Positions 2,540 through 19,302 of a stretch of DNA of 26,529 bases are shown in pieces. The position numbers were made by a program, and so were the translations under genes. The stretch comes from a virus. The notes under the pieces were generated by a model. That model did not search any database, was not told the origin of the DNA, and saw only the letters and a list, made by a program, of their open reading frames with translations. The stretch lies in the UHGV virus genome UHGV-0097687; one strand, written 5' to 3'. Position 1 is the stretch's first letter. Each line of letters starts with the position of its first letter.

Positions 2540-4603
2540 ATGGCAGCAGTAAAAATCTCAGGTGTGCTGAAAGATGGTGCGGGAAAACCAATACAGAACT
2601 GCACTATTCAACTGAAGGCAAAGCGTAACAGCACCACGGTACTGGTGAACACGGTGGCCTCTGAAAATCCTGATGAAGCCGGGCGTTACAGTATGGACGT
2701 TGAGTATGGTCAGTACAGCGTCATCCTGTGGATTGAGGGTTCTCAGCCATCACATGTTGGGACCATTACCGTCTATGAAGGTTCCAGTCCGGGGACGCTG
2801 AATGATTTTCTCGGTGCCATGACGGAAGATGATGTCATGCCGGAGGCATTGCGCCGTTTTCAGGAAATGGTGGAGGATGTGGCACGCAACGCTGAAGCCG
2901 CCTCTCAGAGCGCAGCGGCAGCAAAGAAATCAGAAACAGCAGCGGCATCGTCCAGGAACGCGGCGAAAACATCAGAGACGAATGCAGGTAACAGCGCGAA
3001 AGCGGCAGCTTCTTCAAAAACAGCCGCACAAAACGCAGCAACAGCGGCAGAACGTTCAGAGACAAATGCCCGTGCGTCAGAAGAAGCCTCCGCAGACAGT
3101 GAAGAGGCTTCCCGCCGTAATGCAGAGTCAGCCGCTGAAAATGCCGGAGTCGCCACCACAAAAGCGCGGGAGGCTGCAGCAGACGCAACAAAGGCCGGGC
3201 AGAAAAAGGATGAGGCTCTGTCGGCAGCGACACGAGCTGAAAAGGCGGCAGACCGCGCAGAAGCCGCAGCGGAAGTGACTGCAGAGCCCTATGCGAATAT
3301 AGTGCCGCCGCTGCCTGATGTGTGGATACCGTTTAACGATTCACTGGATATGATTGCGGGTTTTTCTCCGGGCTATAAAAAAATAGCTATTGGTGACGAT
3401 GTGGTTCAGGTCGCCAGTGATAAACAGGTTAATTTCAGTCGCGCATCAACGGCAACATATATCAACAAATCTGGCGAACTGAAAACGGCGGAAATTAATG
3501 AGCCGCGATTTGAGTGTGATGGCCTGCTTATTGAGGGACAAAGAACGAACTACATGCTCAATTCGGAAAGTCCAGCCAGCTGGGGGAAGTCATCAAACAT
3601 GGATGTGCCCGAAACCGGGAGGGATAGTTTTGGTTTTACTTATGGAAAGTTTGTCTGCAACGATTCTCTGGTTGGGCAAACTTCGGCTATTAATATGGCA
3701 TCAATTGCTGCAACAAAGTCAGTTGATGTCTCAGGCGATAATAAATACGTGACAACCTCATGTCGCTTTAAAACAGAACTGCAGGTAAGGTTGCGAATCC
3801 GGTTTGATAAATATGACGGAAGTGCAACAACTTTTCTTGGCGATGCGTACATTGATACGCAAACGCTTGAAATTAATATGACAGGTGGTGCTGCCGGCAG
3901 AATTACGGCACGAGTCAGGAAGGATAAGACCACGGGCTGGATTTTTGCAGAGGCAACGATTCAGGCAATTGATGGTGAGTTAAAAATAGGCTCTCAGATA
4001 CAGTATTCTCCTGAGAAGGGTGGGGCAACAGTATCTGGTGACTATATTTATCTTGCCACCCCACAAGTAGAGAATGGGCCGTGTGTATCATCATTTATTA
4101 TTTCAGGAGGCAGCGCAACGACAAGAGCCAGTGATTTGGTTAGTATCCCCACCAGAAATAATCTTTATAAGTTACCATTTACTTTTTTACTTGAGATTCA
4201 TAAAAACTGGGATATTGCACCAAACGCCGCACCCCGCGTGTGGGATATAGCAGCAGCCAATACCGGGCAATCAGCAATTGCAGCAGTCAACAGAGGTAGT
4301 GGTAAGTTATATATGAGTCTGTCAAACCCTTCAGGCTCGTATGTTAATAGCGCAGCGACAGATGTATTTGCAGAGAAAACCACATTTGGATGTATTGCAA
4401 AAGCTGATGGTCACTTTCATGTGGTGACAAATGGTAAAGCGGTTAATGAAGTTTATTGTGAATATAATGGCGTGACCGCTGATAAAAATATCCGATTTGG
4501 AGGGCAGACGAATACTGGAGAACGACATCTGTTTGGCCATATTCGCAATTTCCGCATATGGCATAAAGAATTAAATGACAGGCAATTAAAAGAGGTCGTA
4601 TGA
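2540..4603 (+). CDS. stf: Side tail fiber protein (Stf-like) with conserved N-terminus, Ala/Ser-rich repeat stalk and divergent C-terminal lectin-like (LamG-type) domain
   Basis: ATG at 2540 with GGAG RBS; N-terminus MAAVKISGVLKDGAGKPIQNCTIQLKA..GRYSMDVEYGQYSV matches remembered lambda Stf; low-complexity SETNA/AAAS repeats 2880-3280; C-terminal ..NIRFGGQTNTGERHLFGHIRNFRIWHKELNDRQLKEV resembles LamG_3 terminal motif. Confidence 0.82.
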   Translation: MAAVKISGVLKDGAGKPIQNCTIQLKAKRNSTTVLVNTVASENPDEAGRYSMDVEYGQYSVILWIEGSQPSHVGTITVYEGSSPGTLNDFLGAMTEDDVMPEALRRFQEMVEDVARNAEAASQSAAAAKKSETAAASSRNAAKTSETNAGNSAKAAASSKTAAQNAATAAERSETNARASEEASADSEEASRRNAESAAENAGVATTKAREAAADATKAGQKKDEALSAATRAEKAADRAEAAAEVTAEPYANIVPPLPDVWIPFNDSLDMIAGFSPGYKKIAIGDDVVQVASDKQVNFSRASTATYINKSGELKTAEINEPRFECDGLLIEGQRTNYMLNSESPASWGKSSNMDVPETGRDSFGFTYGKFVCNDSLVGQTSAINMASIAATKSVDVSGDNKYVTTSCRFKTELQVRLRIRFDKYDGSATTFLGDAYIDTQTLEINMTGGAAGRITARVRKDKTTGWIFAEATIQAIDGELKIGSQIQYSPEKGGATVSGDYIYLATPQVENGPCVSSFIISGGSATTRASDLVSIPTRNNLYKLPFTFLLEIHKNWDIAPNAAPRVWDIAAANTGQSAIAAVNRGSGKLYMSLSNPSGSYVNSAATDVFAEKTTFGCIAKADGHFHVVTNGKAVNEVYCEYNGVTADKNIRFGGQTNTGERHLFGHIRNFRIWHKELNDRQLKEVV

Positions 4604-4878
4604 AAGATTTAACTTTGAAGTTTCATGACAAACTGCAGTTTAAGGCCTTCCTGTCATCTCTTGGCTGGGCGGAAGATGAAGACCTCCAGAATAAACTGTT
4701 AGTTGATGAAATTGGTTTCACCTACACAGAAACAGGGGTAACAGAAGAGGGAGAACCTGTCTGTATCCGGAATGATGGTTATTTTGTCAACATTCGCATT
4801 CTTGATGACTTGTTTGATGTTTCTGTATTCTCTGATTATGTCGTGGAGCTGGAAACACCGCTTCGGGAATGGAGCTGA
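4600..4878 (+). CDS. Hypothetical protein, translationally coupled to stf (possible fiber chaperone/assembly factor)
   Basis: ATGA overlap with stf stop; 92 aa acidic protein; no recognised motif. Confidence 0.5.
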   Translation: MKDLTLKFHDKLQFKAFLSSLGWAEDEDLQNKLLVDEIGFTYTETGVTEEGEPVCIRNDGYFVNIRILDDLFDVSVFSDYVVELETPLREWS

Positions 4879-4890
4879 AAGGAGGAAATA

Positions 4891-5178
4891 ATGGATATAA
4901 GCCCCTTACTTCATGCACTTTGTGCTGTGGCTGCGCAGATACTGGTTGGTCTTTTTACCGGAAACTGGGCTTACGGAGCGATAGCCGGTTGTACGTTCTT
5001 CATTGCGCGTGAACATACCCAGGCAGAATATCGCTGGATTGAAATGTTCGGGCATGGCAAGCGAATGAATATGCCGTGGTGGGGCGGTTTTGATCCGCGA
5101 GCTTGGGATGTGGCAAGCCTGATGGATTTTGCTGTGCCGGTGGTGGCGTGTCTGCTGGTCTGGCTGTTTATCCGTTAA
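4891..5178 (+). CDS. Small hydrophobic (membrane) protein of unknown function
   Basis: Strong RBS GGAGGAAATAATG; 95 aa with two hydrophobic segments (LLHALCAVAAQILVGLF.., ..FAVPVVACLLVWLF). Confidence 0.5.
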   Translation: MDISPLLHALCAVAAQILVGLFTGNWAYGAIAGCTFFIAREHTQAEYRWIEMFGHGKRMNMPWWGGFDPRAWDVASLMDFAVPVVACLLVWLFIR

Positions 5179-5849
5179 ACATAAAAAGCCGCAGCAACTT
5201 GTCATGGCAGAATACTGCGGCTGGCTGGTGAACTTCCGATAGTGCGAGTATTGAATGATTTCCAGCCGTTATCGATTTTACGTATTTTTTGTATGAGAGA
5301 ATTTGCACCACCTCCTTCCGACCATCTATAACTGCACGCCACTATTTCTAGGGCTGCTATGTGCCAGAAACGGTAGTTTTTTATTTCTATCATTGATGTC
5401 GAGTTACTTGGACTATTTGATATGAATTAATAGGGTACAAAGCGATGCATAATGTGCAAATTGATTGTTTAGTTTACTGAAAGGGAGCCCCTCTCCCTTA
5501 GCATAAAATCATAAATCCAATAATTTAATGCATAGTGAGAAGAAGATTATCAACAGAATGAACTTCATTTCTTTTTTTGATTTTTCTTTTGAACCCCGTT
5601 ATAACAATCCGAGAAGTTAATTTTTCTATCGGTTTAAACATGGCAGCAACGAAGAACAAAGGAATAACGCCTGATATTAATGAAGCGACGCTAACCACCG
5701 TGTCCGACGGGACATTAAAATACGCAATAAATGAAACAGGTATGGTTACTAATAACATAAAATAAACAGAACGAATGAGTTTATATTTTAATTTGGCATT
5801 TCTTTTTAATTTTGCACCCTCACGGATTCGTGTCTGAATTATTACATTT

Positions 5850-7562
5850 CTAGGCCTGGGCTTCAGTTATAGTGGCAGCTTTTTCTAGATTCGATTTGAT
5901 GACAAGTTCATTTTTGTCTGCACTTATTTCTTCAAGTTTTTTCTGAAGAACCTCAACTTGTTTTTCACTTTCGATACCTTGCTTAGCCCGAATTTCGAGT
6001 AAAGATTTTGTCCTAAGTGCATTTTCTATTACATCTTCATCCATAAAACTCATGATATCCTCAACCAGATCCGGTACAAATCCCTCCGGCTGTAAATTTT
6101 TGCTTCTCAACTCTATAACCAAGTTGGCTGCAGTCTCTTTTGACATGGCTCCACTCGCGACAGAACCTTTCATATCTTTGTATACATTAGCGACTTTTGC
6201 TGCCACCTGTGTAGAAAGAATAACTTGTGCTCTAGCAACTACATCAAAAGTCGTAGGTAATTTCACTCCATTAGCAAACCCCTTATGAGACTTAAACCAT
6301 AATCTCTCAGTTATATAGTCTAAAGTGGCTGCGAATGGTATTGTTCTTTCTCCTTGAGTAGAAAAGTAATGTGATAGGGATTTGGTTATATTTTTACCCG
6401 TGATGAGTAGGGCTCCAGTTTGCTCTAACTTTATATTGCTTCTTCCTTTTCTTTTGTAATTTATCTTTGTGAAAATTTTTAAAGTATCAGCAATTTTATC
6501 CAATTCATAATCTGGGAATTCTCTTTTTAGTTTATCAAGTGTAGAGGTGCTTTCAATATTATACTCCGGCTTATCGTAATAATCAGTGTTAGCATCAAGA
6601 GAAATTTTCATTTTTCCTAGTTTTTCAAAAAACTCTATTTTTTTTATTGTGATGTCTGATTTTGTAGAACAGCTTTGTAGTAGATTGATCATTCCAGTCT
6701 TAGATGGGTCTGGATGTTGATTACGCTCGAAAATCTTTTCTGCTGCATAAAAGTAACTTTCAACTTCGCTTTGTGTTTCTTCAAAGTACTTTAATTCTAT
6801 TTTTGATTTATTTCCTGAGCGGTCTCGTAACCCCTTGACTAATAATAGAAATTCTTCAAACATACGATAATGAATATCGCCATTTAATCCTACAGCATCA
6901 AATAATAATTCCGTATCAAGAACTATTTGAAAATCATTCCTCCATGGCTCAGCATTCACTAAGTCTGAGTTATAACAGATCCCACCGTAAAGAATTAGTC
7001 CTTCTTCAACCTTGTTTAACTTATCGGTGAACAGAGGGTCTTTTGAATTCTGAATGATGAACTGACTGATAACTACGGAGTTCTCACTCTGCTTTCTGTC
7101 ATGAATAAAATATGAATAAAAATCTGATAATAGCTCTTCAATCTGCTCTAGATTAAGTTCTTCTTTACTAAAGGACTTAACGAATTGAATGAGCAAGTTT
7201 TTTATATAGTCTTGTTCTTCCTTTACTTGCTCGTAACTTGCTTTTAGATTATTGTTTCTATCAAATTTTTCAGTAACATAATATTTGCCATTTTTAAATT
7301 CCAACAAACCTATTTTCTTGAGTCTGTTTTTTAGACATGATTTCACTACAGCTTCAGGTATATCAAATCCATAGTCAGAATTTAGTTCCTGAGAGCACTT
7401 AGTTACGTCGAACTCCCATAACTGATGTATGACTATAGTTGAACATAGGAACTGAGCTAAAACATCGTATATATCTTTCTTATTTTCATGTAATTGACGA
7501 AAAAGAGCTGCAGATGCCAATAAACGTTGATCTTCCATAATTCCTTTCTTGAGAATACTCAT
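5850..7562 (-). CDS. Hypothetical 570-aa protein, AT-rich cargo gene (candidate defence or exclusion protein, function unknown)
   Basis: Long uninterrupted ORF in roughly 33% GC DNA; GGAGGGG RBS 4 nt before ATG; C-terminal coiled-coil-like region; no Walker, nuclease or RT motif recognised by eye. Confidence 0.7.
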   Translation of the reverse strand: MSILKKGIMEDQRLLASAALFRQLHENKKDIYDVLAQFLCSTIVIHQLWEFDVTKCSQELNSDYGFDIPEAVVKSCLKNRLKKIGLLEFKNGKYYVTEKFDRNNNLKASYEQVKEEQDYIKNLLIQFVKSFSKEELNLEQIEELLSDFYSYFIHDRKQSENSVVISQFIIQNSKDPLFTDKLNKVEEGLILYGGICYNSDLVNAEPWRNDFQIVLDTELLFDAVGLNGDIHYRMFEEFLLLVKGLRDRSGNKSKIELKYFEETQSEVESYFYAAEKIFERNQHPDPSKTGMINLLQSCSTKSDITIKKIEFFEKLGKMKISLDANTDYYDKPEYNIESTSTLDKLKREFPDYELDKIADTLKIFTKINYKRKGRSNIKLEQTGALLITGKNITKSLSHYFSTQGERTIPFAATLDYITERLWFKSHKGFANGVKLPTTFDVVARAQVILSTQVAAKVANVYKDMKGSVASGAMSKETAANLVIELRSKNLQPEGFVPDLVEDIMSFMDEDVIENALRTKSLLEIRAKQGIESEKQVEVLQKKLEEISADKNELVIKSNLEKAATITEAQA

Positions 7563-7634
7563 ACAGCCCCTCCGATCACATTTTTGATGGTTTGATACAG
7601 AAGCAACGTGTACTTATTTAATATTTAACAATAA

Positions 7635-7663
7635 ATCTACAATATTATTTCAAAGTGTGTCAA
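7635..7663 (-). promoter_or_regulatory. Candidate sigma70 promoter for the 570-aa gene
   Basis: Minus strand TTGACA (7663-7658), 18-nt spacer, TAGATT; about 70 nt upstream of the start codon. Confidence 0.3.
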
Positions 7664-8300
7664 TTTTTTTTAACTATCTAAAGCTAGATTCCCTTGGTAT
7701 ACAAATATTGTACAACAAAACAAAAATTTTCAGAGTTTTATTCTTTTATTTGCCGTAGGGGCTCGGGTTTGTTCGAGGTTTCCATCTGAAGCCCTCAAAC
7801 TGATGACCGACTTCCCTTGATTAAGGATAGCGTTGCATTGACCCGTTGAACTCACAGCTCATAACAGACATTCACTACGGTTATGGCAGAAAGGTATGCA
7901 TGCTGGGGATGGGGAAGTTGTGAAAGAAAAGAAGGCTGCTGCGTCGTTTGACATCACGTCTATCTTTTTATTGGTTATGCAGGTCGTAGTGGGACAAAAC
8001 TGAGACACATAAGGCCTCACAATGGCTTGCAAGGCTTTACATGTTTTGATGTAGTGGGACGTGTGAGCGCAGTGTTGATGGGGTAATGCATTGAATTAGA
8101 AGCGAATTCTTATAATTCGTAATGCTAAGATCGTAGGGGCGTCCCCATTTTCGGTACTACCTAAATCAATGAGTTACCTAACTTTTAGTTATGACATAAA
8201 GATATATATGCTAAGTAAGATATAGAGAAGCTGGTAAAGCAATTAAAGCTGTTGCTACGTGTGTGGCGGCTGATGTATAGCCATTTATGCAGATGAAACG

Positions 8301-8326
8301 AAAAAAAGCCCACATCTGTGGGCTTT
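8301..8326 (-). terminator. Intrinsic terminator (strong on minus strand, weak on plus)
   Basis: Minus strand GCCCACA-GA-TGTGGGC followed by TTTTTTT; lies about 230 nt downstream of the methyltransferase stop. Confidence 0.65.
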
Positions 8327-8443
8327 CAAGTCACTCGGGAGCCGCGGCTCCTTTGCGTATCCTTTTTTGTCTCCTCACCGTCTGGTCGGTGTCCTGCTGA
8401 GACTGCTAACTTCCTGTTTTTCTTGGTGTTGTCCTTACACCGT

Positions 8444-8457
8444 CCAATCATGATTGG
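8444..8457. repeat. Perfect 14-bp palindrome CCAATCATGATTGG abutting the att-like core
   Basis: Read directly from sequence. Confidence 0.6.
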
Positions 8458-8482
8458 CTGGCGGGAGTTGAACCCGAGTCCG
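8457..8482 (-). other. tmRNA (ssrA) 3'-end-like segment, candidate phage attachment-site core or remnant
   Basis: Minus strand CGGACTCGGGTTCAACTCCCGCCAGC matches the T-arm/acceptor region of E. coli ssrA as remembered (..CGGACGCGGGTTCAACTCCCGCCAGCTCCACCA), 25 of 26; similarity ends before the CCA end. Confidence 0.5.
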
Positions 8483-8554
8483 TATTTTTATAATTAGCTG
8501 AAATAAAACGATTAATACTAACCATTTTATTCTGCGGATCTTTTGCGGCTCCTT

Positions 8555-9454
8555 TTATGTCTGGATGTGGTCGTCAACACATCCTCTTTTAAATACAGGC
8601 GCTTTTACCTTAGTTGGATCATCTGTTTTAAAGATTTTCAATCGTTCACTGAAGAACATTACCTCAGATCCTTTGTACCGATCTTGAGCACTGTAGTTTA
8701 TTCCATATACTAATGATGATGTCTTATACATAGCTTGGATCTCAGGAGTGTTATCGTAAGAAACAATCCAAGGTGTTTTAATATTATTCTGTACGACTTT
8801 TGCAACCCTAACATGATCATCATGATCATAATGGTTGATATATAAACCTTTACCTTTTATGTAATAAGGTGGATCCAAATATGTTAATGAGTTTTGTGGC
8901 AATTGAGTAACTATTTTTTTAATGAAATCAATTGCATCCATGTTATATAAATCTATTCTGTGACGATTTTCTGATATTTTATGGATTCGAGAAATCAAAT
9001 CACTCTTATTATAGCGAGCGTCAAGCTTCCATTTCCCTTCTTGATTTTTACCGCCAATTACTCCACCTTTTAATATTCCAGAACGATTTGTTCTATTGAG
9101 AAAAAAGGTTGAGAAACCAATTGTTAAAAGATCATGGTCTTTAGGATTATTAATTATATCTTTCTGCCTAAACCATTCATCCATTGTAACTTCTGTTCTT
9201 TCAATTAAAGAACATAATTGATCTGCATGATTTAATACACTGTGCCAAAAAGCATAAACAGAAATATTAATATCATTAAGGATGATTTTTTCAGCTGCAT
9301 TTAGATGTAACAGTTTCAATGCTAAACCAGCACCCCCAGCATATGGTTCGGCATAATGTATAGGCGAAAGATTATTTTCTTCAATAATCCGAAGCATGAA
9401 ATTTGCAAGCTTGCCTTTACCGCCAGGATAGCGAAGTGGGGTGTTAAAACGCAT
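8555..9454 (-). CDS. Dam-family (alpha-class) N6-adenine DNA methyltransferase
   Basis: N-terminal PLRYPGGKGKL and EPYAGGAG (SAM-binding motifs comparable to E. coli Dam) and catalytic YLDPPYY; AGAGG RBS; AT-rich. Confidence 0.85.
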   Translation of the reverse strand: MRFNTPLRYPGGKGKLANFMLRIIEENNLSPIHYAEPYAGGAGLALKLLHLNAAEKIILNDINISVYAFWHSVLNHADQLCSLIERTEVTMDEWFRQKDIINNPKDHDLLTIGFSTFFLNRTNRSGILKGGVIGGKNQEGKWKLDARYNKSDLISRIHKISENRHRIDLYNMDAIDFIKKIVTQLPQNSLTYLDPPYYIKGKGLYINHYDHDDHVRVAKVVQNNIKTPWIVSYDNTPEIQAMYKTSSLVYGINYSAQDRYKGSEVMFFSERLKIFKTDDPTKVKAPVFKRGCVDDHIQT

Positions 9455-9488
9455 ATGATACCTCTAAATGTCAGATCTAAAGTATATC

Positions 9489-9528
9489 AAAAAAAGGGCT
9501 TTATGGCCATCACATAAAACCCTTTTTT
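9489..9528. repeat. Long near-perfect inverted repeat (about 16-bp stem, 7-nt loop) between the ATPase and methyltransferase genes
   Basis: AAAAAAGGGCTTTATG-GCCATCA-CATAAAACCCTTTTTT; on the minus-strand RNA the single mismatch is a G-U pair. Confidence 0.6.
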
Positions 9529-9534
9529 AATCAA

Positions 9535-11268
9535 TTAGTTATCTGACAGATATGATGAGATGGTAGCAGAATCGACACCATGTCCACTTATCATAATAAC
9601 TTTAAGACTCTTTATTAGTTCATTCTTGAAGCTATCCGATTGAACAGGATTTTTCTCGACCCAATATCGATATGGGTTATCTTTAACTCTTCCTTTGACT
9701 TGGGCCTGAAATTGAGTCGTATGTGCAAAATCTTTAAACAGTTTTCTAACTCTCCCTCCATGGTTTTTGTTAACTTTTTTATAATTATCTATAAGGATTT
9801 TTAAATCAATCGGAGCGTTACCAATCTTTAGCGTTGCAATTATGTCTTTAGCTGTTTTCATAAAAACAGCTTTTGTAAATTTATTTTTATTTTCCCAATA
9901 TGCATCATCAGGTGGTAAATTATATAAAAACTCAAAAATCATTTGGTCTGGAGGTAAGGTGCTTGGAAGCAAACATAAGTTTTTTTCTTTTTTGGCTTTT
10001 TTTGCATTAGCACTGTTGTCGTGAACAACATCACCGTCTAAGACGATCAAGCTTTTAGCTGTAAATTCTGGTATTTTTCTTGCCATTAAGTCAAGCATGG
10101 CAGAGCAGCTAATATTTATATTTCCTAATGGATTTAATATTTTATTTATTTTTCGATCTGTTATCAATTGTTTGAAAAAGTCGAAACCTTCTTTGTCTTC
10201 AAAATATACATTTGCCTTTGGAAGACAAATGTCATCATTAATTTTTACAGTTTCAACATGTAAATCAGCGTGGATATCTGTCCATGAAAGATTATTCTTT
10301 GTTTTAATATCTCCATATGTGTCTGTAAGATATATTGTTTTAAAGCTATCACTATCTTGTTTTGAACGATTATAGATATCCTCTATTATTAATGGAGAGT
10401 GCGAGGTCATGATTATTTGCAGATCGTATTGTTTTGCTGCTTTAGTTAGAATATTAATTAGCTCTAACTGTGCCGCAGGGAAAAGACCTGCATCGGCTTC
10501 ATCAATTAACAATATTCCGCCATGATAATCAGAATAAGTTTCCTTCAATCTTTTAAATGAAAAAATTGCCTGGATTAATTGTCCAACATTATCTTCACCA
10601 ACAGATACTGATTGGTGATCATAATTGTCACCATGGACAACCATTGAATCGATAGTACCTTTTGTTGCTGTTACTGAGCTTCCATTGTTTTTTAGTAAGA
10701 GTTGGTTACTCATCATTCTGATTTCATCAGAATTTTCATTGATGTACTGAACATCCCGTGTTGAGTAATCAGTCCTTAATGTAATAGGAAGAAGTCGTGC
10801 TAAGCTTAAAAAAATAACAGGATGAGTAACGTTTCTACTTTGGTTTTTTTCCGGTATTGAATCATTTCCCCTGACTACAGGCCTAGATTTATCTCTGTCA
10901 CTGTAGCTGTATAAACCTAATGTTAGTTTTTCAAGATGTTTGTTCGATGCACCATCATAGACACTAATTTTGACGTCCATTGAACCAGGAACATCAAATT
11001 GTTCTGAAAGCCTAAAATGTTCGCTGAAAGCTGACTTGAAGCTGCCATTTGTTAATGTTTTATATTGTGTTAAATCAGTCTCAGGGTTTTTGGTAAAGTC
11101 CTTTGTAAAGCTAAATATTTGGGCGATAATGCCAAGAATTGTGGATTTAGATGTGCCATTTTTACCACAAATAACAGTTAGGCGAGAACCAAACTCGATG
11201 TTTATATTTTTCAGTCCGCGAAACTTCACAACATTTATATTTTTTAGTTTGGTAATTTGATTTGCCAT
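9535..11268 (-). CDS. OLD-family ATP-dependent nuclease-like protein (N-terminal ABC-type ATPase, C-terminal Toprim-like domain)
   Basis: Start set at MANQITKLKNINVVKFRGL..; Walker A GKNGTSKST, Walker B/D-loop ILLIDEADAGL, H-loop MTSHSP; C-terminal ..FEDKEGFD.. and ..LIVLDGD.. resemble Toprim E and DxD motifs; 577 aa, similar in size to P2 Old and GajA. Confidence 0.72.
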   Translation of the reverse strand: MANQITKLKNINVVKFRGLKNINIEFGSRLTVICGKNGTSKSTILGIIAQIFSFTKDFTKNPETDLTQYKTLTNGSFKSAFSEHFRLSEQFDVPGSMDVKISVYDGASNKHLEKLTLGLYSYSDRDKSRPVVRGNDSIPEKNQSRNVTHPVIFLSLARLLPITLRTDYSTRDVQYINENSDEIRMMSNQLLLKNNGSSVTATKGTIDSMVVHGDNYDHQSVSVGEDNVGQLIQAIFSFKRLKETYSDYHGGILLIDEADAGLFPAAQLELINILTKAAKQYDLQIIMTSHSPLIIEDIYNRSKQDSDSFKTIYLTDTYGDIKTKNNLSWTDIHADLHVETVKINDDICLPKANVYFEDKEGFDFFKQLITDRKINKILNPLGNINISCSAMLDLMARKIPEFTAKSLIVLDGDVVHDNSANAKKAKKEKNLCLLPSTLPPDQMIFEFLYNLPPDDAYWENKNKFTKAVFMKTAKDIIATLKIGNAPIDLKILIDNYKKVNKNHGGRVRKLFKDFAHTTQFQAQVKGRVKDNPYRYWVEKNPVQSDSFKNELIKSLKVIMISGHGVDSATISSYLSDN

Positions 11269-11290
11269 GTTTCTATCTTGCTCCGTAAAA

Positions 11291-11309
11291 TGGCCACAAA
11301 TTGTGGCCA
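11291..11309. promoter_or_regulatory. Perfect palindrome TGGCCACAA-A-TTGTGGCCA between int stop and ATPase start (int terminator or operator)
   Basis: 9-bp perfect arms; on minus strand followed by ATTTTAC. Confidence 0.35.
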
Positions 11310-11326
11310 ATAGTTTCATGCTTGGA

Positions 11327-12493
11327 TTATATTGTTATCTTCTTCAAGCTTGTTTGTCCATCATATTCCTTCAGATATGAGCCATAGTGCCTGAAAAGCA
11401 TCTCCGGCCCTTTATGCCCCATTTGAGCTGCAAGCCAAAACAGGTTTGCTCCCCGGCTGATATGGCGGGTGGCGAATGTATGCCTGGTTTGATATGGATT
11501 TCTGTAACGAATACCTGCTTTTCGCAATGTTGGCACCCATGCTTTTTTCCTGATTGCATCAGCACTTGCCCAGGGCTTATTGGTCTTTGGATCTTCAAAG
11601 ACAGTAGCATCCTTCATGAATGTAAATGGCTTCTGATTTATCAGCGCCAACATTGCATCTTCTGTCAGTTCAACTTTACGAGTACCGGCTTTTGTCTTTG
11701 TTCCTTTGATAACACCGACAACACTTGCGCTCTGGACATGGGCAGTTTTTCCAACAAAGTCGATATCACGCCATCGAAGGGCACATAATTCAGAACTACG
11801 CAGGCCTGTATGTATAGCGAACCGGAACAGATTCTCCCATTGTTTGTTTCCGGCTGCTGTTAGTAATGCATCAACTTCTGCTGGTGATAGCGGATCAACC
11901 ACGTAGCTGCTTTCTGCTTCTGACTTATCACTTTGGTAGCGCGAAGCAGTTACCAACGATACGGGGTTAATTTGAAGTACCCCATCGGTTACGGCTTCAT
12001 CAAGTGCTGACCGCAGGAAAGATAACTGGTTGCGAATTGTTTTTAAGGTCGTTTTCTGGCTTTGAATCCACGCTTTCAGGATTGCTGGTGTTAATTCACT
12101 TGCAGGGCAAATGTGGAGTGAGGCTAACGCACTACGGCATTTTTTATAACCACCAATCGTAGAGGGTGAAAGTTTTCTCGTTTCGCAGATTTCAAGGTAT
12201 TCGTCCAGGTACATTTTTACCGTTTTGCCTGCAGCAGCATTACCAAAAATTTTCAAACGAGCAGAACGGGGAAAATATTCCGCATAAATGAATGTTCCCC
12301 TTTCGATCTTATTATGAATTTCGCCGAGTGTGCGCTCGGCGTATTTAATGTTCTTTGGTGTTACTTCCAGATTGGAAAGAGGCTCACGACATTTAACTCC
12401 TTTGTAGGTGAAAGTTATATTGATCGTTTCGCCCTGGCGGTGTTTCCTGATTGTTACGCCGCGCGGTAGTTTGAGCAGTTTTGTCTGGCCCAT
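11327..12493 (-). CDS. int: Tyrosine recombinase (phage integrase) with N-terminal arm-binding domain
   Basis: 388 aa; C-terminal catalytic motifs ..HTGLRSSEL.. and ..RHTFATRHISRGANLFWLAAQMGHKGPEMLFRHYGSYL (R..H..R..Y); start overlaps xis. Confidence 0.9.
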   Translation of the reverse strand: MGQTKLLKLPRGVTIRKHRQGETINITFTYKGVKCREPLSNLEVTPKNIKYAERTLGEIHNKIERGTFIYAEYFPRSARLKIFGNAAAGKTVKMYLDEYLEICETRKLSPSTIGGYKKCRSALASLHICPASELTPAILKAWIQSQKTTLKTIRNQLSFLRSALDEAVTDGVLQINPVSLVTASRYQSDKSEAESSYVVDPLSPAEVDALLTAAGNKQWENLFRFAIHTGLRSSELCALRWRDIDFVGKTAHVQSASVVGVIKGTKTKAGTRKVELTEDAMLALINQKPFTFMKDATVFEDPKTNKPWASADAIRKKAWVPTLRKAGIRYRNPYQTRHTFATRHISRGANLFWLAAQMGHKGPEMLFRHYGSYLKEYDGQTSLKKITI

Positions 12494-12672
12494 TTTGCAA
12501 CCTCACTAAGATCAATCCACCTCTCCTTAACGCCTTCAACCTTTAAAACCTGAACACCTTCACGCCAAACACCGCGCTGTACACGTTTGTTTATTGCTTC
12601 AGGAGTTTCGCCAGTTTCTTTGCAATAAGTTGAGATTGGAACGCAATCGAGGTTCAGCATATGTTTCTCCAC
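12454..12672 (-). CDS. xis: Excisionase-like DNA-binding protein
   Basis: 72 aa, directly upstream of and overlapping int; basic/aromatic small protein typical of Xis. Confidence 0.65.
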   Translation of the reverse strand: MEKHMLNLDCVPISTYCKETGETPEAINKRVQRGVWREGVQVLKVEGVKERWIDLSEVAKWARQNCSNYRAA

Positions 12673-18648: not shown

Positions 18649-19302
18649 ATGAGTAATAAATATTGCCAGGCGCTGGTAGAACTGCGGAACAAACCAGCCC
18701 ATGAACTGAAGGAAGTGGGCGATCAGTGGCGCACGCCGGACAACATTTTCTGGGGAATTAACACCTTGTTTGGTCCGTTTGTTCTGGATCTGTTCACTGA
18801 CGGTGATAACGCCAAATGTGCCGCGTATTACACGGCGGAAGACAACGCGCTGGCGCATGACTGGTCAGAACGTCTTGCGGAGCTTAAAGGTGCTGCCTTT
18901 GGTAATCCCCCATACAGCCGCGCCAGTCAGCATGAGGGGCAATACATCACCGGCATGCGTTACATCATGAAACATGCCAGTGCCATGCGTGATAAGGGCG
19001 GGCGCTATGTTTTCCTGATCAAAGCTGCCACCAGCGAAGTGTGGTGGCCGGAAGATGCGGACCATATTGCTTTTATTCGCGGGCGTATTGGTTTTGAACT
19101 GCCTGCCTGGTTTATCCCGAAGGATGAGAAGCAGGTGCCGACAGGCGCTTTCTTCGCTGGTGCTATTGCTGTTTTCGACAAGACCTGGAAGGGACCGGCA
19201 ATCAGCTACATCGGGCGCGATGAACTTGAGGCATGTGGTGAGGCGTTTCTGGCGCAGGTTCGCCAGCAGGCAGAAAAACTTGTCAGGGAGATGGCGGCAT
19301 GA
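18649..19302 (+). CDS. Phage Dam-type N6-adenine DNA methyltransferase (small NPPY class)
   Basis: 217 aa; catalytic ..AFGNPPYS..; typical location in lambdoid early-right region. Confidence 0.8.
   Translation: MSNKYCQALVELRNKPAHELKEVGDQWRTPDNIFWGINTLFGPFVLDLFTDGDNAKCAAYYTAEDNALAHDWSERLAELKGAAFGNPPYSRASQHEGQYITGMRYIMKHASAMRDKGGRYVFLIKAATSEVWWPEDADHIAFIRGRIGFELPAWFIPKDEKQVPTGAFFAGAIAVFDKTWKGPAISYIGRDELEACGEAFLAQVRQQAEKLVREMAA

Follow-up and report, generated by a model that had tools for sequence, protein, structure and literature searches.

UHGV virus genome UHGV-0097687, analyzed here over its whole length (26,529 nucleotides; the window), carries on its minus strand two co-oriented, AT-rich genes located between the integrase gene and an att-like core, as proposed in the first-pass annotation. 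The upstream gene (positions 9535 to 11268) encodes an ATP-binding cassette (ABC)-type ATPase with a putative nuclease domain at its C terminus. The downstream gene (positions 8555 to 9454; 299 residues) encodes an N6-adenine DNA methyltransferase assigned to the D12 class by Pfam (PF02086) and to the PD-Lambda-5_B family by PADLOC. Both genes are intact, and the GC content of the two-gene block is 0.32 to 0.34 versus 0.45 to 0.57 elsewhere in the window. The full open reading frame (ORF) of the ATPase extends from position 9535 to position 11319 (594 residues). Comparison with homologues indicates that translation most likely starts at M18 (position 11268), giving a protein of 577 residues, since this is the start of RefSeq WP_001596855.1 and of most homologues and since a cluster of 577-residue proteins exists at 100% identity. 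Based on sequence comparisons, the best reading of the pair is that of a PD-λ-5-type module in which the effector has been exchanged.

The methyltransferase was recognized by the MethyltransfD12 profile of Pfam (E = 1.8e-19; 70.9 bits against a cutoff of 22) and by the PADLOC model PD-Lambda-5_B (PDLC04018; E = 2e-124; 412.6 bits), residues 1 to 282 being aligned with positions 1 to 283 of the 291-position profile. It also matched the PADLOC model MTase_II (1.8e-107). Motif X (PLRYPGGK, residues 6 to 13), motif I (EPxAGG), and motif IV (DPPYY, with DPPY at residues 194 to 197) were invariant in an alignment of 23 methylases, as expected for a catalytically competent methyltransferase. The assignment of this enzyme to the Dam family in the first-pass annotation was therefore correct with respect to the D12 class but not with respect to orthology, since a score of 56.6 bits, below the TIGR00571 cutoff of 114.85, rules out a Dam (GATC) orthologue.

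PD-λ-5 is a two-gene system from a prophage of Escherichia coli ECOR7 listed as "ParB/HEPN, methyltransferase" (Vassallo 2022, PMC9519451). It protected against 9 of the 10 phages tested, most strongly against T-even phages, also acts on T7, and was described by its authors as a compacted "RM+Abi" (restriction-modification plus abortive infection) system (PMC9519451). Cloning of PD-λ-5 required a Δmrr host (PMC9519451), indicating that its methylase is active. The module of UHGV-0097687 shares with PD-λ-5 the methylase family, the prophage-borne location, and the organization as a two-gene operon in which the effector gene precedes the methylase gene. The difference lies in the effector, gene A of PD-λ-5 encoding a ParB/HEPN protein of ~500 residues, whereas the gene found here encodes an ABC-ATPase with a Toprim-like C-terminal domain. 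PADLOC 2023 cannot call the pair because the match for gene A is missing. PD-Lambda-5_A models were absent from the 25 best PADLOC matches of the ATPase, whereas a genuine PD-Lambda-5_A protein, encoded by an Enterovibrio locus (L006), scored 3.7e-207 on the PD-Lambda-5_A model, ruling out that the ATPase is a diverged PD-Lambda-5_A. The pairing had been regarded as undescribed. This holds for the ATPase, which differs from the known partner, and we found no description in the literature of an AAA_15-type ATPase plus a D12 methylase as a named system, but the methylase itself is the PD-Lambda-5_B component of a validated system.

In order to determine what accompanies the methylase, the gene located directly upstream was tallied in 80 species-dereplicated genomes from many phyla. 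The ATPase alone was found in 23 genomes, typically with a 3-nucleotide gap or an overlap, PD-Lambda-5_A alone in 45, and both in 5; the gene was not assigned in the remaining 7, five of which were cut by a contig end. Thus, the ATPase and gene A replace each other or co-occur beside a single methylase family. In a neighbor-joining tree computed without bootstrap support, the methylases paired only with the ATPase formed two clades nested among those paired with gene A. The three-gene loci, L006, L093 (Vibrio phage ValB1MD-2), L047, L051, L058, and L078, combine a shorter ATPase (~517 to 560 residues), PD-Lambda-5_A, and the methylase, with the ATPase gene in a codirectional or convergent orientation. 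The three-gene version may be a fuller form ancestral to both two-gene systems.

The ATPase gene was in turn used to scan IMG/VR, yielding 72 loci, including 64 with enough flanking sequence to be judged. The methylase gene was present in all 64, nearly always immediately downstream and on the same strand. The ATPase ORF was truncated beside an intact methylase in 4 of these loci, and none of the 64 contained an intact ATPase without the methylase. Among 5426 complete E. coli genomes, the ATPase, the methylase, and the joint 4.6-kb segment were each detected in 85 (~1.6%), the carriers including the ST131 (sequence type 131) strain JJ1886 and strain 042. Co-conservation of the two genes across genomes, on which the proposal of a two-gene module depended, was therefore observed in both collections. 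No helicase or reverse transcriptase gene was seen beside the ATPase gene in the neighborhoods inspected. The pair occupied varied moron sites of prophages, next to int in the window and in Citrobacter phage phiNP, next to cI in Pseudomonas aeruginosa, and between Q and the holin gene in Yersinia; it travels as one mobile unit among these sites. We consider it very probable that the two genes form one functional unit. In E. coli GN4143, the ATPase is 85% identical to that of the window and the adjoining methylase 98.1% identical, a contrast that may reflect an exchange of alleles or a faster-evolving effector.

The N-terminal domain of the ATPase (positions 10324 to 11268, minus strand; residues ~1 to 315, with an insert at residues ~55 to 215) matched Pfam AAA_15 (3.8e-15), AAA_21, and SMC_N, and its best PADLOC matches were PtuA, AriA, and GajA. 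The motifs quoted in the first-pass annotation were all present and were invariant across an alignment of 41 ATPases, namely, GKNGTSKST (Walker A, K41), LLIDEAD (Walker B, D256-E257), and TSHSP (H290) in the 577-residue numbering. The protein displays the Walker A, Walker B, signature, and H-loop motifs of an ABC ATPase, as do OLD proteins. The insert is beta-rich in the AlphaFold2 model (predicted local distance difference test [pLDDT] score of 88.5). The protein belongs to phrog_3940 (E = 6e-201), labeled "unknown function" in PHROGs, and is labeled "AAA family ATPase" in RefSeq, some relatives being labeled "ATP-dependent nuclease." The family comprises about 430 clusters at 50% identity and is found in Proteobacteria, in Bacteroidetes, and in many prophages.

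The C-terminal region (positions 9538 to 10317, minus strand) was modeled separately (pLDDT of 89) as a four-strand alpha/beta core (residues ~350 to 435) followed by a helical domain (residues ~440 to 577). In this model, E357-D358 follows strand 1, D411-G-D413 follows strand 3, and D441-Q442 follows strand 4, which is the arrangement of Toprim domains. E357-D358 and D411-G-D413 were invariant in the alignment of 41 ATPases, and the residues at these positions of the model were still invariant in 40 distant relatives (29% mean column identity) retrieved by a profile search of 1.84 billion representatives. The closest folds included AriB, the nuclease of PARIS, but the Foldseek comparison of the domain with the PDB was not significant. 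Profile searches did not report any Toprim domain. Pfam detected no Toprim, OLD-like_TOPRIM (PF20469), or DUF4435 domain in the window protein, in 24 C-terminal fragments, or in the 40 distant relatives, and NCBIfam, PADLOC, and PHROGs detected no Toprim domain in the whole protein or in fragments. The C-terminal and middle fragments had no match at E ≤ 10 among the PADLOC 2023 models, and the C-terminal half had none in a profile search of the PDB. Alignment of the C-terminal region by hhalign with a 58-sequence profile of class 1 OLD C-terminal domains gave a probability of 0.1%, and alignment with P2 Old alone revealed no Toprim relation. In comparison, PF20469 was found in all 120 listed relatives of P2 Old except one, a 335-residue fragment. 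The claim that the protein is an OLD-family nuclease with a Toprim domain was therefore supported by the ATPase motifs, by E357 and D411xD413, and by the modeled topology, but it failed at the sequence level, as no hidden Markov model (HMM) reported the domain. The protein probably has an OLD-like architecture with a very divergent, Toprim-like, catalytic domain, the modeled fold and the conserved acidic residues being what points to Toprim; membership in the OLD family is only partly supported.

The known OLD nucleases used for comparison were P2 Old and TsOLD (class 1), GajA (class 2), the OLD protein of retron Eco8 (class 3), and AriA/AriB of PARIS (class 4). The common features are the N-terminal ABC ATPase of the AAA_15/AAA_21 type, the phage- or prophage-encoded character, and, as far as the model goes, the C-terminal four-strand domain with a glutamate after strand 1 and a DxD motif after strand 3. 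In contrast to these proteins, the ATPase of the window does not significantly match PF20469 or DUF2813, is nearer to PtuA than to Old by HMM comparison, and contains an insert that is beta-rich in the model, whereas OLD reviews describe a dimerization domain (PMC10568477). Its obligate neighbor is a D12 methylase, whereas the OLD classes are found alone, with a UvrD-like helicase, with the reverse transcriptase and noncoding RNA of a retron, or split into AriA and AriB.

The ATPase and methylase genes are separated by an 80-nucleotide spacer (positions 9455 to 9534, minus strand) in which a terminator-like hairpin overlaps a promoter-like element. The hairpin core (positions ~9496 to 9522, minus strand) is flanked by an A-run and a U-run and has a predicted energy of -18 kcal/mol (z of -4.6). 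The element detected by a promoter scan consists of TGGCCA (9504 to 9509) and TATACT (9481 to 9486) separated by 17 nucleotides. The hairpin between the genes and the promoter-like element suggest separate transcription of the methylase gene in this clade, apparently from a promoter of its own, so that the methylase could be produced independently of the nuclease. In other clades, the inter-gene gap is 3 nucleotides, versus 80 here, or the genes overlap. We compared 37 unique long spacers (loci L095 to L160, L002, L012, and L092 among them) associated with ATPases that are 47 to 100% identical and originating from both AT-rich and GC-rich hosts. Exact TGGCCA was present at the same position in 31 of them, and two more contained TGTCCA; the remainder of the spacer had diverged where TGGCCA was kept. 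Yersinia has TGAACA at this position, supporting a -35 role. The background rate of TGGCCA is 0.36 per kb. Its conservation in the spacers exceeds what a -35 element needs. Upstream of the ATPase gene, a perfect palindrome, TGGCCACA-ATT-TGTGGCCA (positions 11291 to 11309; 8+3+8), is located 23 to 41 nucleotides from the start codon. Within the closest clade (ATPase identity of at least 77%), 8 of 9 unique upstream regions retained both of its TGGCCA hexamers, and the palindrome was absent in more distant clades. The window as a whole contains 8 TGGCCA sites versus 8.35 expected, i.e., the chance level, 3 of the 8 falling in the two control regions of the module. TGGCCA may be the sequence that the methylase itself recognizes, serving in autoregulation. 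Modification of TGGCCA to N6-methyladenine (m6A) has been reported in Photorhabdus luminescens TT01 without an assigned enzyme (PMC6092372), and an alpha-type orphan methylase of Chania was predicted to recognize this sequence (PMC5005818). A family-wide control element was rejected, since TGGCCA was absent upstream of the PD-Lambda-5_A-methylase operons and upstream of the ATPase genes of the tightly coupled pairs.

The window corresponds to a lambdoid phage of E. coli that has CPS-53-like yfd genes and is read here in a circularly permuted order. In E. coli MS21324, positions 3500 to 8482 and 8302 to 12600 of the window match ~35 kb apart, as the two ends of a prophage located between ssrA and glaH. 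These two matches, one from each half of the window, thus lie at opposite prophage ends and overlap at positions ~8302 to 8482, an attP-type core common to both ends, which places the gene pair between int and attP. The int gene (positions 11327 to 12493, minus strand) encodes a tyrosine integrase (Arm-DNA-bind_2, 5e-23; Phage_integrase, 3.4e-16). The final ~33 nucleotides of the overlap are the 3' end of ssrA according to the RefSeq annotation of MS21324, on which this assignment rests, neither Rfam (E ≤ 0.01) nor ARAGORN having reported a tmRNA or tRNA in the att region. This comparison confirms the att core, the attachment site being the 3' end of ssrA. The order in the window (tail fiber end, attP, methylase, ATPase, int) is permuted with respect to the integrated prophage, so that the window resembles a phage genome that is excised or circular, or else a phage contig. 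Across attP from the gene pair is an AT-rich orphan gene (positions 5525 to 7562, minus strand) that had no match in Pfam, PADLOC, or NCBIfam and no informative match in PHROGs. Its ORF in the window (5850 to 7562; 570 residues) is shortened by an indel near positions 5850 to 5853 and corresponds to a protein of 672 residues in E. coli MS21324; the gene may be a further moron or defense candidate, or the interruption may be a sequencing error. The lack of matches in the same databases also ruled out that the 570-residue ORF is the missing gene A. The early region contains a second, unrelated phage-type N6-adenine methyltransferase gene (positions 18649 to 19302, plus strand; Pfam Dam PF05869, 9.7e-46). 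Thus, the phage encodes two adenine methylases, and the D12 enzyme is not needed as an anti-restriction methylase.

Together, these features led us to propose that the pair would be a mobile, prophage-borne two-gene immunity operon with a restriction-modification (RM)-like logic, i.e., a module of the PD-λ-5 type with a swapped effector. The downstream gene would provide an active m6A methyltransferase marking the resident DNA, host and prophage, at one short and fixed sequence (possibly TGGCCA), and the upstream gene would encode an ABC-ATPase joined to a Toprim-like nuclease domain that depends on metal. Following ATP-driven engagement, the nuclease would attack the nucleic acid of an incoming phage devoid of the mark, the methylase shielding the lysogen. 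The apparent promoter located behind the terminator-like hairpin would enable production of the methylase apart from the nuclease. A nuclease tolerable only in the presence of the methylase fits the data because the nuclease gene is never found alone, because it decays, because the effector is encoded upstream of the methylase, and because the methylase gene apparently has its own promoter. We infer that the upstream protein is a nuclease, that unmarked phage nucleic acid is its substrate, that methylation protects from it, and that the pair acts against phages. A role of the pair in defense is likely; for the methylation-guarded mechanism specifically, the chances are close to even, if not slightly lower.

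The pair resembles type II RM systems by the adjacent and co-oriented effector and m6A methylase genes, by the possible promoter of the methylase gene, by the absence of the putative nuclease without the methylase, and by the match to the PADLOC model MTase_II. It differs from them because the effector is an ATP-dependent ABC/Toprim-like protein instead of a PD-(D/E)XK, HNH, or GIY-YIG enzyme, because no shared recognition module is evident, and because the homologous PD-λ-5 system did not show the classical RM escape phenotype. PrrC-EcoprrI and PARIS similarly couple an ABC-type NTPase to an RNase- or Toprim-type effector and are genetically tied to a DNA modification system, in keeping with the "RM+Abi" flavor noted for PD-λ-5. 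However, PrrC accompanies an entire type Ic RM system and acts through a HEPN-like anticodon nuclease, PARIS consists of two separate proteins and does not require a methylase, and the sole partner found here is a lone methylase.

Several points weigh against a methylation-guarded nuclease. PD-λ-5 survived the exclusion, in the original screen, of high-frequency-escape clones with an identifiable RM system, unlike a classical RM system (PMC9519451). No domain reading a sequence or a methyl group was identified in the ATPase. The methylase family is ~50 to 60% identical across phyla, which fits one fixed specificity and is unusual for diversifying RM systems. Other points additionally favor the main rival, a guard or abortive infection mechanism of the type of PrrC-EcoprrI or PARIS. 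According to this explanation, the ABC-ATPase/Toprim protein would be kept latent by the methylase or its activity and freed once the methylase is hit by an anti-restriction factor of the phage (a DNA mimic, a SAM [S-adenosylmethionine]-degrading enzyme, or a methylase inhibitor); cleavage of tRNA or other host RNA by the Toprim domain would then abort infection, and methylation would not be what protects the DNA. Both P2 Old (PMC12445682) and AriB (PMC12409363, PMC11464382), which is among the closest folds of the C-terminal domain, are reported to act in abortive infection by cleaving tRNAs and not unmethylated DNA. Suicidal effectors that back up the methylation-based systems to which they are attached have been described for OLD-type ABC plus Toprim modules (PMC12839542). 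The other partner of this methylase family contains a HEPN (RNase-type) domain and belongs to a system termed "RM+Abi," and PD-λ-5 is active against T7 and performs best against T-even phages, which resist most RM systems (PMC9519451). Obligate linkage suits a bait-and-guard pair as well as an RM pair. However, PARIS and P2 Old need no methylase, so that their mechanisms do not predict the dependence seen in 64 of 64 loci, the two-gene form contains no primary restriction enzyme to back up, and the loci in which a truncated ATPase gene adjoins an intact methylase are just as well explained by a toxic nuclease. We therefore regard the guard mechanism as rather unlikely, although it comes closest to the methylation-guarded nuclease.

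The remaining explanations trail behind. The pair could be a selfish addiction module, a post-segregational killer stabilizing the prophage or island, as are some RM systems, with phage defense being incidental. The strict linkage, the absence of nuclease-only states, the apparent separate promoter of the methylase, and the location at the prophage end adjoining int and attP are all compatible with addiction, which is also not mutually exclusive with defense. Yet the same methylase family occurs in a system selected directly for phage resistance (PMC9519451), and the pair occupies classic moron or defense positions in unrelated prophages, making addiction as the sole function improbable. Finally, the first-pass annotation had considered as an alternative that an Old-type exclusion ATPase merely happens to lie beside an orphan anti-restriction methylase. 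The 80-nucleotide spacer with its terminator-like hairpin and promoter-like element does part the genes in this clade, and methylases of this kind are treated in REBASE-type surveys as orphan or putative type II enzymes; a type II methyltransferase, M.Eco1886ORF14565P, possibly the same enzyme as the one studied here, is listed from JJ1886 (PMC4659465). Against this, the two genes co-occur in every flanked viral contig and every E. coli carrier, they are separated by 3 nucleotides or overlap in other clades, the methylase clades follow the type of partner, and the phage already has a typical orphan Dam (PF05869). Independent functions are therefore very unlikely, and are the least probable of the explanations considered.

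PD-λ-5 is among the broadest-acting systems of the E. coli pangenome screen, and we found no account of its mechanism in the literature. The novelty of the pair is tempered by the membership of its methylase in a validated system and by the familiarity of effector swapping as a theme. The PD-λ-5 methylase emerges as a reusable chassis, accompanied in some genomes by a second, unrelated effector and in others by both effectors, and the two types of partner offer a natural comparison for the contribution of the methylase as a protective mark, a specificity subunit, or a bait. The ATPase family has no model of its own in PADLOC 2023, and recognizing it would extend the range of ABC/Toprim-type effectors and fill a gap in defense annotation. 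Carriage in clinical E. coli lineages may shape phage susceptibility and methylomes. We tentatively suggest, as a possibility that we hold to be somewhat doubtful, that one conserved m6A methylase serves as a hub shared by two unrelated effectors, either the ParB/HEPN protein of PD-λ-5 or an ABC-ATPase whose Toprim-like nuclease is highly divergent, the latter forming a fifth, methylase-coupled OLD-like class. If so, the methylase and not the effector would provide the self/non-self information, either by a fixed mark, possibly TGGCC(m6A), present in the control regions of the module, or as the guarded target of anti-restriction factors.

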